From the NCBI GenBank assembly GCA_044225365.1, contig JBGAIQ010000019.1, positions 45,754 to 109,753 of the forward strand: a DNA stretch of 64,000 nt, read 5' to 3'. Numbering within the stretch: position 1 is the first letter of the stretch; each line of letters opens with the position of its first letter. Below the pieces are notes generated by a model. That model ran no database searches. It was not told the DNA's origin and saw nothing but the letters and a program-made list of their open reading frames with translations. The translations under genes and the position numbers were made by a program. Source of the DNA: Planctomycetota bacterium (GTDB lineage Bacteria > Planctomycetota > B15-G4 > JADJEK01). Below, one piece after another: positions 5,330 to 64,000 of the stretch.

Positions 5330-5545
5330 GGAGCGCCGGGCTCTGCCCGGCAATGGGGCGGCGATGCGGAGGAAAGAAGATGCCAGGCTGGAGCCTGGCG
5401 GTCCGCCTGGCGGTCCGAATTTGGAGCGCCGGGCTCTGCCCGGCAATGGGGCGGCGATGCGGAGGAAAGAAGATGCCAGGCTGGAGCCTGGCGCTCCGCC
5501 TGGCGGTCCACCTGGCGGTCCACCGGGCGCTCCGCCTGGTGGTCC
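5330..5545. repeat. REPIN-like cluster: two units with a 93-bp period, each an inverted REP pair, followed by tandem 12-bp half-REP units
   Basis: GGAGCGCCGGGCTCTGCCCGGC...GCCAGGCTGGAGCCTGGCGSTCC starting at 5330 and 5423; four 12-mers like GCCTGGCGGTCC at 5498-5545. Confidence 0.85.
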
Positions 5546-44191: not shown

Positions 44192-44241
44192 GGACCGCCG
44201 GGCTCCGCCCGGCATCTCATTTCAATGCTGCCCGGCGGTCC
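44192..44241. repeat. REP-like palindrome plus an inverted half copy
   Basis: GGACCGCCGGGCTCCGCCCGGCATCTC (27 nt, identical to the reverse complement of 63832-63858), then GCCCGGCGGTCC at 44230-44241. Confidence 0.8.
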
Positions 44242-62877: not shown

Positions 62878-63011
62878 CCGTCGTCCGTTTCTGTGAGGTT
62901 CCTCGTGATGCGTGCGAATTCTTTCAACACCAACTGGGAAATCCAGTGCGCGTTTTCGGCATTCGCGGGAGCAGGCATTCGAGGAAAGTCTCCGACCGTA
63001 GGATCGAGGAA

Positions 63012-63794
63012 ATGATGCGCAAGGAGCACGCCGACATTTCGGACATGGAAGTCGCAATTGCCGCCGCGAGCGCGGGTTCGGCAGTCGTACGTGCGGCGTT
63101 CGGACGCAGGGTCGAGGTCGAGATCAAACCCGATCACTCACCGGTGACCGCCATCGATCGCGAAGCGGAGCGGGTGATCGAGACCGAGATCGCCGCGCAT
63201 CGGCCGAACGACGGCTTCTTCGGCGAGGAGTCGGGTCGCAGCGATGGGCCGTCGGGAAGGCTCTGGGTCGTCGATCCTTTGGACGGGACCAAGAATTTCC
63301 TCCGGCGTCTGCCGTTCTGCTCGGTGCAAGTCGCGTTGTTCGCCGAGGGCGACTTCCAGGTCGGGGCGTCCGCGGCGCCGAGCTTCGACGAGACGGCCGC
63401 CGCGGCGAACGGTAACGGAGCGTTCCTGAACGGTGAACGCATCCACGTGAGCTCGGTCGATCGCATCGAAGCCGCGTCACTCTCGTTCGGGAACCTGAAG
63501 ACCCTCGCGCGGGGCAGGGGCTGGGCGCGGCTCGGCGATCTCGTGCGTCGCGCCGATCGCACGCGCGGCTACGGCGACTTCTTCCACTATCACGCGCTCG
63601 CCGCCGGGAAACTCGACGTCGTGATCGAATCGGACGTGTCGATCTACGACGTCGCCGCGCTCGCGGTGATCGTGCGCGAAGCGGGTGGCCGCGTCACCGA
63701 TCTGAACGGCGGTCCCCTGAGTCTGAGCTCGACCTCGATCGTCGCGACGAACGGATTCCTGCACGATGCGGTGCTCGAGGCGCTGGCGTCGTGA
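63012..63794 (+). CDS. Inositol monophosphatase family protein (histidinol-phosphatase HisN-like)
   Basis: GEE, WVVDPLDGTKNF, RGYGDF and YDVAA motifs. Confidence 0.9.
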   Translation: MMRKEHADISDMEVAIAAASAGSAVVRAAFGRRVEVEIKPDHSPVTAIDREAERVIETEIAAHRPNDGFFGEESGRSDGPSGRLWVVDPLDGTKNFLRRLPFCSVQVALFAEGDFQVGASAAPSFDETAAAANGNGAFLNGERIHVSSVDRIEAASLSFGNLKTLARGRGWARLGDLVRRADRTRGYGDFFHYHALAAGKLDVVIESDVSIYDVAALAVIVREAGGRVTDLNGGPLSLSSTSIVATNGFLHDAVLEALAS

Positions 63795-63800
63795 TCGACG

Positions 63801-63858
63801 GGACCGCCGGGCTCCGCCCGGCGTGGTTCAGGAGATGCCGGGCGGAGCCCGGCGGTCC
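63801..63858. repeat. REPIN-like inverted pair of REP palindromes
   Basis: GGACCGCCGGGCTCCGCCCGGC at 63801-63822 and its perfect inverse at 63837-63858. Confidence 0.88.
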
Positions 63859-63860
63859 GC

Positions 63861-64000
63861 GTGTGCTGAGCATGTTCAACGGTCGAGGGTGCAAGTCCCT
63901 CGTTCAACTTGATGGAGGTGCAGAACACGCGTAACGCAGAGGCCGGCCCGCGAGGGAGGTCCGAAGGAAGCGTGAAGCGAAGGTGCGGGTCGATGAACAA
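63861..64000 (+). mobile_element. 5' end of a group II intron (IIC-like), truncated by the window edge
   Basis: GTGTG (GUGYG) start, GAGGGTGCAAGTCCCTC hairpin and CCCGCGAGGG..GAAGGAAGC pattern, directly after a stem-loop. Confidence 0.7.

Follow-up and report, generated by a model that had tools for sequence, protein, structure and literature searches.

The last 200 nt of the DNA analysed here, a stretch of 64,000 nt from a Planctomycetota bacterium that we call the window, raise the question of whether a group II intron has inserted itself next to a REP element and, if so, what it recognises there. The original prediction, made from the letters alone, was that an intron begins 2 nt past a perfect inverted REP pair (a REPIN) and takes the host REP family as its target. 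The geometry is as described: the two 22-nt arms are 100% complementary and separated by a gap of 14 nt, and the right arm is followed by GC (63859-60) and then by GTGTGCTGAG (63861-70). Six nt separate the REPIN from the stop codon of a gene of the inositol monophosphatase family, and the intron is located downstream of this gene, in sense orientation (Table 1). We argue below, with a probability of about 0.8, that the window closes with the first 140 nt of a IIC intron of about 1.9 kb that uses REP monomer hairpins as its target.

Table 1. Features at the end of the window (positions are those of the 64,000-nt stretch).
Feature	Positions	Strand	Basis or remark
Gene of the inositol monophosphatase family, upstream of the intron	62946..63794	+	ORF; PF00459, 180.8 bits
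REPIN left arm: REP monomer of type B, 0 mismatches	63801..63822	-	inverted-repeat search and consensus count
REPIN right arm: REP monomer of type B, 0 mismatches	63837..63858	+	inverted-repeat search and consensus count
Monomer hairpin in the right arm	GCCGGGC 63837-43, loop GGA 63844-46, GCCCGGC 63847-53	+	
7-nt spacer GGTCCGC, from hairpin foot to insertion site	63854..63860	+	
Putative IBS1, CCGC	63857-60	+	inferred for the C90 copy; CCGT in the C7 copy
First 140 nt (domain I) of a IIC group II intron, ending at the contig end	63861..64000	+	alignment, fold, RF02001
GUGUG 5′ start	63861-65	+	
RF02001 truncated match	63944-64000	+	31.0 bits
AGGAA bulge motif, IIC-specific	63965-69	+	

Identity of the last 140 nucleotides

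Relatives of the element were collected by scanning a domain V sequence against species-representative genomes, which gave more than 120 loci. The 140 nt match 22 of them with an identity of 68.5-81.5%, which does not exceed 77% where the match spans all 140 nt, and in all 22 a domain V lies 0.6-1.96 kb downstream. Once two loci that align only partially (L057 and L071) and one duplicate (L072, of L073) are left out, 19 relatives of about 0.6-1.96 kb remain, and the 140 nt align with their 5′ ends in their entirety, with a mean column identity of 84% and 55 invariant columns. The consensus fold of this alignment has 36 pairs, 13 of which show compensatory changes, so that the domain I-like hairpins that had been noticed after the GTGTG start at 63861 are borne out. 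Within the bulge motif, G107, A108 and A109 of the alignment are invariant; 16 of the 20 rows read AGGAA and the other 4 read AAGAA.

Group IIC introns are small, have CGC instead of AGC in domain V, a distal stem that is 2 bp shorter and an AGGAA bulge in the epsilon′ region; further traits are an IBS1-EBS1 pairing of 3-4 bp, the lack of an EBS2 and a 5′ exon that bears a stem-loop (Toor et al. 2006, PMC1702495). The element belongs to this class: its 5′ end aligns in full with the relatives, it carries the AGGAA motif, and 3′ ends found in the same genome (see below) have the CGC in domain V.

The Rfam group II models, which had been proposed as a check, agree in part. At gathering thresholds the whole window gives no match; RF02001 (group-II-D1D4-3) emerges only when the last 221 nt are scanned with matches reported by E-value; its offset there is that seen in the relatives, but its score of 31.0 bits is below the gathering score of 32 (E 6e-5, the match being cut at its 3′ side). 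The match begins 83 nt into the intron of the window, and at +83 to +86 in the full-length relatives. A search of the whole genome with RF02001 at E ≤ 0.01 returned no match, the two truncated 5′ ends included. Five full-length relatives score 107-136 bits with RF02001 and are also matched by RF01998, while the gathering score of RF00029 is reached by two of the five (L021 and L080). The intron-encoded proteins (IEPs) of the relatives are 462-464 aa long, consist of RVT_1 and GIIM only and match TIGR04416 with 424 bits; their best match among solved structures is the GsI-IIC RT (6AR1, 470 bits, versus 141 for LtrA and 132 for 6ME0).

We note that ORF-less IIC introns of about 620-660 nt that are related to the full-length ones are found at L081, L035 and L090, in Vicinamibacterales, Latescibacterota and deltaproteobacterial MAGs.

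Other copies and the continuation of the element

The original prediction stated that only 140 nt of the element are visible, and this has a simple origin: the end of the window is the end of contig C90, in an assembly of 103 contigs that overlap by 140 nt. As C90 ends there, there is no next window in which the rest of the intron could be read. Contig C7 likewise ends in this 140-nt 5′ end (100% identity), which there too follows a REP. Five other contig ends (C14, C58, C60, C8 and C84) share one identical 3′ end, which contains the end of an ORF (..LSVKYFTNLGLPRLAPPRHR, then the stop), a domain V, a domain VI in which an A is bulged, and the sequence ..GTCGAT; all five terminate in ..CCTATGTCGAT. 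RF00029 scores 39.8 bits on these five ends, its gathering score being 40, and in the cmscan alignment the CGC of domain V is placed opposite the consensus AGC and the distal stem shows a gap of 4 nt. These 3′ ends contain the final 20 residues of the IEP, and ..YFTNLGLPRL.. resembles the ..YFKSLGLPSL.. of the relatives. Since none of the contigs spans the element from a 5′ end to a 3′ end, it is by inference that we treat the two as parts of one element.

The assembly lacks the body of the intron, but the element goes on in contigs from sequencing runs. In the Logan contigs of run X1, which is probably the source sample, a contig of 993 nt with a depth of 95.3 extends over 63860-64000 and 852 nt beyond, while the contig of the flank has a depth of 14.1 and stops at 63862. 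The depth ratio of about 6.8 fits 5-7 near-identical copies, to which other organisms in the sample could contribute. The assembly breaks here because of these approximately 5-7 near-identical copies, only two of whose 5′ junctions are present in it, and a multi-copy intron also explains several other contig breaks.

A dead 5′ fragment or an artefact of the assembly is a very improbable explanation of the 140 nt. The missing full copy would fit such a reading, as would two exact-word scans of JGI metagenome contigs, which gave no match to the element. However, three further runs have contigs with the same sequence, two of which continue for about 850 nt; moreover there is 100% identity between the two 5′ ends, no difference among the five 3′ ends, and a depth about 6.8-fold that of the flank. 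Regarding the distribution of the element, 60 relatives and 400 genomes of the phylum hold no near-identical copy, the only matches being at 72-75% identity in 3 other genomes; the best match in plasmids has 77% identity, and nothing closer than 77% was found among the phylum genomes, the species representatives and the plasmids.

The candidates for the contig that carries the 3′ exon of the C90 copy are C58 and C60. In the C8 and C84 copies, the 3′ exon is part of a larger composite repeat that starts with a REP variant (tail GCTCC) and extends over C8:146-400 and C84:82-330, with paralogues at C2:93, C35:38491, C93:212, C38:71 and on C37; many contig ends fall within this repeat family.

Contigs C7 and C14 probably represent a single locus, seen from its two sides. 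Exactly two copies of a REPIN of 61 nt, whose 15-nt spacer is unique, exist in the genome, one directly before the 5′ junction of C7 and the other 3 nt after the 3′ junction of C14 (loci L015 and L011). Because tandem REPIN arrays, which are present in this genome, share array-specific spacers, the simplest reading is that the intron lies between two units of one array. The abutment of the only two copies of this REPIN on intron ends could also be taken to mean that REP or REPIN units were placed beside introns that were already there. We give almost no credence to this order of events: just a handful of the 386 REPs are near introns, the relatives sit behind a hairpin of some kind in 18 of 19 cases, and with array-specific spacers an intron between two array units is the simpler explanation of C7 and C14.

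Insertion sites and the REP monomer hairpin

The arms at the end of the window belong to a real REP family, made of high-copy extragenic palindromes and accompanied by a REP-flanked Y1 transposase. Counting sequences with at most three mismatches to either of two consensus types, there are 386 REP monomers in the 6.53-Mb genome (215 of type B and 171 of type A), in 172 clusters that include 70 inverted pairs with a modal gap of 14 nt. The ORF at C76:107789-108547 matches NF047646 (REP-associated tyrosine transposase, RAYT) with 84.8 bits, the cut-off being 80, and has REPs on each side. The original prediction counted three other REP loci in the window, all unoccupied. With the same mismatch criterion these are three further monomers at two loci (5382-5404, 5475-5497 and 44192-44213), and indeed none of them is followed by an intron. 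The monomer at 44192-44213, on the minus strand, is followed by GC, as at the occupied site, yet it is empty.

Both 5′ junctions of the assembly, in C90 and in C7, read GCCGGGC-GGA-GCCCGGC-GGTCCG[C/T]|GTGTG, where the bar marks the start of the intron. The chance that one insertion falls at exactly this offset from a REP is about 3e-5. The same intron end appears in two further contexts in run X5, an independent metagenome from another study: in the first, it follows the same REP with a different upstream spacer; in the second, it follows a REP in reverse orientation, GGACC-GCCGAGCT-CC-AGCTCGGC-TTCCCAT|GTGTG, that is, a hairpin and 7 nt. Last, the intron-free paralogues of the repeat that forms the 3′ exons of C8 and C84 have GCCGGGCGGAGCCCGGC-GCTCCTT directly before the equivalent point. 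All the junctions that could be read or inferred (two in the assembly, two in X5, two from the paralogues) are therefore located 7 nt past the foot of a REP monomer hairpin, and all the hairpins are of the REP type. Whether other copies share REP 5′ flanks was the check that the original prediction called for, and they do: C7 lies behind a REP at the same offset, as do the X5 and the paralogue-based junctions.

We propose that the stem-loop read by the intron at the end of the window is the monomer hairpin of the right arm. The host REP family as target thus agrees with every readable junction, but what is constant is a distance of 7 nt after a monomer hairpin of 7-8 bp and not the foot of a REPIN 2 nt away, as was first suggested. 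It is important to note that the long REPIN stem has arguments in its favour. Folded as single-stranded DNA, the REPIN of C90 reaches -36.7 kcal/mol (z -8.3, none of 200 shuffles folding as well), while the right-arm monomer reaches -9.6 kcal/mol, and this far stabler stem would bury half of the IBS1 proposed for the C90 copy, which speaks against the monomer; an outer 9-bp stem in C7 closes 2 nt before the site, and the empty sites paralogous to C8 and C84 are also REPINs that end 2 nt before it. We nevertheless favour the monomer, because of the reverse-oriented X5 junction and of the spacing in the relatives, and consider recognition of the REPIN stem quite unlikely. Since the REP of this X5 junction is reversed, no REPIN partner can lie upstream of it, and none is present in the 30 nt shown. 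At least 5 bp of hairpin precede the site in 18 of 19 relatives, and among these 18 the distance from foot to site is 7 nt in the modal class (6/18), 6-8 nt in 13 and 2 nt in none; the splice sites of B.h.I1 are described as lying 3-11 nt behind the stem-loop (PMC1702495). A 2-nt spacer also leaves no IBS1 single-stranded.

The IBS1 candidates vary from one junction to another: CCGC, CCGT, CCAT and, by inference from the paralogues, CCTT. An EBS1 such as GYGG could accommodate them if wobble pairs are allowed, a prediction that concerns a position beyond the visible 140 nt. In the relatives, EBS1 is found at about nt 181-184; the automatic pairing of columns was ambiguous and EBS1 was placed at column 185 by inspection. 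It pairs over at least 3 bp with the last 3-4 nt of the exon in 17 of 19 relatives, the exceptions being L073 and L090.

The other explanation that has to be weighed is that of an ordinary IIC intron that accepts any intergenic hairpin with a short IBS1, REPs being merely the commonest GC-rich hairpins downstream of genes. IIC introns are described as reading structure more than sequence (PMC1702495; PMC7306698), and the hairpins of the relatives are unrelated: some are classic terminators (as in L021), others are small hairpins, and the IIC copies from P. putida and Stutzerimonas that we examined are behind classic terminators. A census of the genome gives 445 sites with a perfect 7-bp hairpin and a 7-nt spacer that ends in CCRY. 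As only 62 of these are in REPs, a specificity for REPs beyond that for an intergenic hairpin is not proven. The other 383 probably lie for the most part inside genes, where insertions would not survive. However, the run of REP junctions (2 + 2 + 2, every one that was read or inferred) exceeds what a random choice among the 445 sites would give, REPs making up 14% of them, and the constant CC of the putative IBS1 comes from the REP tail. We take the REPs themselves to be the probable target, and regard indifference to the kind of hairpin as unlikely.

One relative offers a parallel. L041, from a Terriglobia genome (G420 C10:995614-995682), is behind a palindromic repeat of the type GCGGTC-ACA-GACCGC, which has 94 matches in that genome; the genome contains a single copy of the intron. 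Four other relatives, L027, L095, L023 and L071, which belong to different Acidobacteriota genomes, have a common 5′ flank, ..CACGCG.TAGCGTCCGCCGC....GCGGCTTCGTT. This flank was considered as a possible REP-like family and rejected, since it has 0-4 matches per genome; the flank may have been conserved as a context for homing, or it may be a site that resembles attC.

By analogy with B.h.I1 and with the relatives, from which the mode of mobility, the role of the hairpin and the assignment of IBS1 are taken, the following sequence of events can be proposed. The IIC ribozyme would encode an RT/maturase that has no endonuclease domain. Instead of homing to a long sequence, the intron would reverse-splice into DNA a few nt past a stem-loop, with the help of an IBS1-EBS1 pairing of 3-4 bp, and would then be copied into DNA by its own RT. 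The stem-loop would here be the REP monomer hairpin, GCCGGGC-GGA-GCCCGGC, with the insertion point 7 nt past the foot, and IBS1 would be provided by the REP tail together with two flanking bases (..CC-R-Y). If the monomer hairpin is the stem-loop, then the REP family of the host, spread by its RAYT to about 386 monomers, would act as the landing pad, with insertions downstream of genes and in sense orientation.

A second group II intron, unrelated to the first, is also present in REPs of this genome. It is 2,028 nt long (C77:12371-14398, locus L147:971-2998), and its other copy is at the contig ends of C85 and C40. It matches RF02005 with 108 bits and RF00029 with 47.7 bits, and has an AGC triad and an RVT_1 ORF. 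Both copies (2/2) are inside REP monomers, at the same point of the REP loop: the 5′ exon ends in GGACCGCCGGGC and the 3′ exon starts with TCC(A)GCCCGGC, and the joined exons of the C85/C40 copy are the reverse complement of the type-B REP over 22 of 22 positions. This suggests that the second intron homes into REPs by sequence. A candidate EBS2 is at nt 260, and a candidate EBS1 at nt 313/321. A tentative reading, for which the balance falls just short of even, is that the REP family is a landing pad common to two unrelated group II introns, a IIC lineage that inserts 7 nt behind the monomer hairpin (a REP-specialised counterpart of the IIC-attC introns) and a non-IIC intron of the RF02005 type that homes by sequence into the REP loop. 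If this is true, repeats spread by a domesticated transposase shape where retroelements live, and the spread of the repeats creates new sites for introns.

Comparison with known systems

Three target specificities are listed for bacterial group II introns, namely homing sites, terminators and attC sites (PMC4424553), to which Toor et al. add "other inverted repeats". Given this addition, and since insertion sequences that target REPs are well known, the mechanism is ordinary IIC behaviour, of which the use of a RAYT-spread REP as stem-loop with a GC-rich IBS1 is a variant. A IIC intron all of whose readable junctions are behind REP hairpins would add host REPs to the stem-loops that serve as targets. 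It would give a tangible example of a selfish element that lives off the progeny of another, and its near-identical natural targets form a series on which one can test what a IIC intron reads, the stem, the spacing or the IBS1.

The closest comparison is with B.h.I1 from Bacillus halodurans and GsI-IIC, which insert behind terminators. The likeness extends to the 5′ GUGYG, the AGGAA motif, the short domain V with CGC and, in the relatives, the IEP (it has no endonuclease domain and is closest to the GsI-IIC RT) and the IBS1-EBS1 pairing of 3-4 bp, and insertion takes place a few nt after a stem-loop in both cases. On the other hand, the hairpin is here a GC-rich REP hairpin without a T-run, the putative IBS1, CCRY, is not U-rich, and the target consists of hundreds of near-identical host repeats.

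The IIC-attC introns, such as S.ma.I2, are a sub-lineage of IIC that uses a repeated imperfect palindrome, the attC of integrons, as stem-loop (Zimmerly and Semper 2015, PMC4424553). The repeat is here a REP and not an attC, and no integron context was seen.

Our literature search for a IIC intron that targets REPs returned a single table row: the group II intron of Pseudomonas putida KT2440 is associated with REPs in 2 of its 9 copies (Tobes and Pareja 2006, PMC1525189), a minority, unlike the intron described here, and this row proposes no mechanism.

Last, several insertion sequences (ISPpu9, ISPpu10, ISPsy8, ISPa11 and IS1397) also use a REP family as a safe landing site (PMC1525189, PMC12288879, PMC8450116). 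These are DNA transposons, whose recognition of the target is based on a protein, whereas the element at the end of the window is a retroelement that would read a hairpin and a few base pairs.
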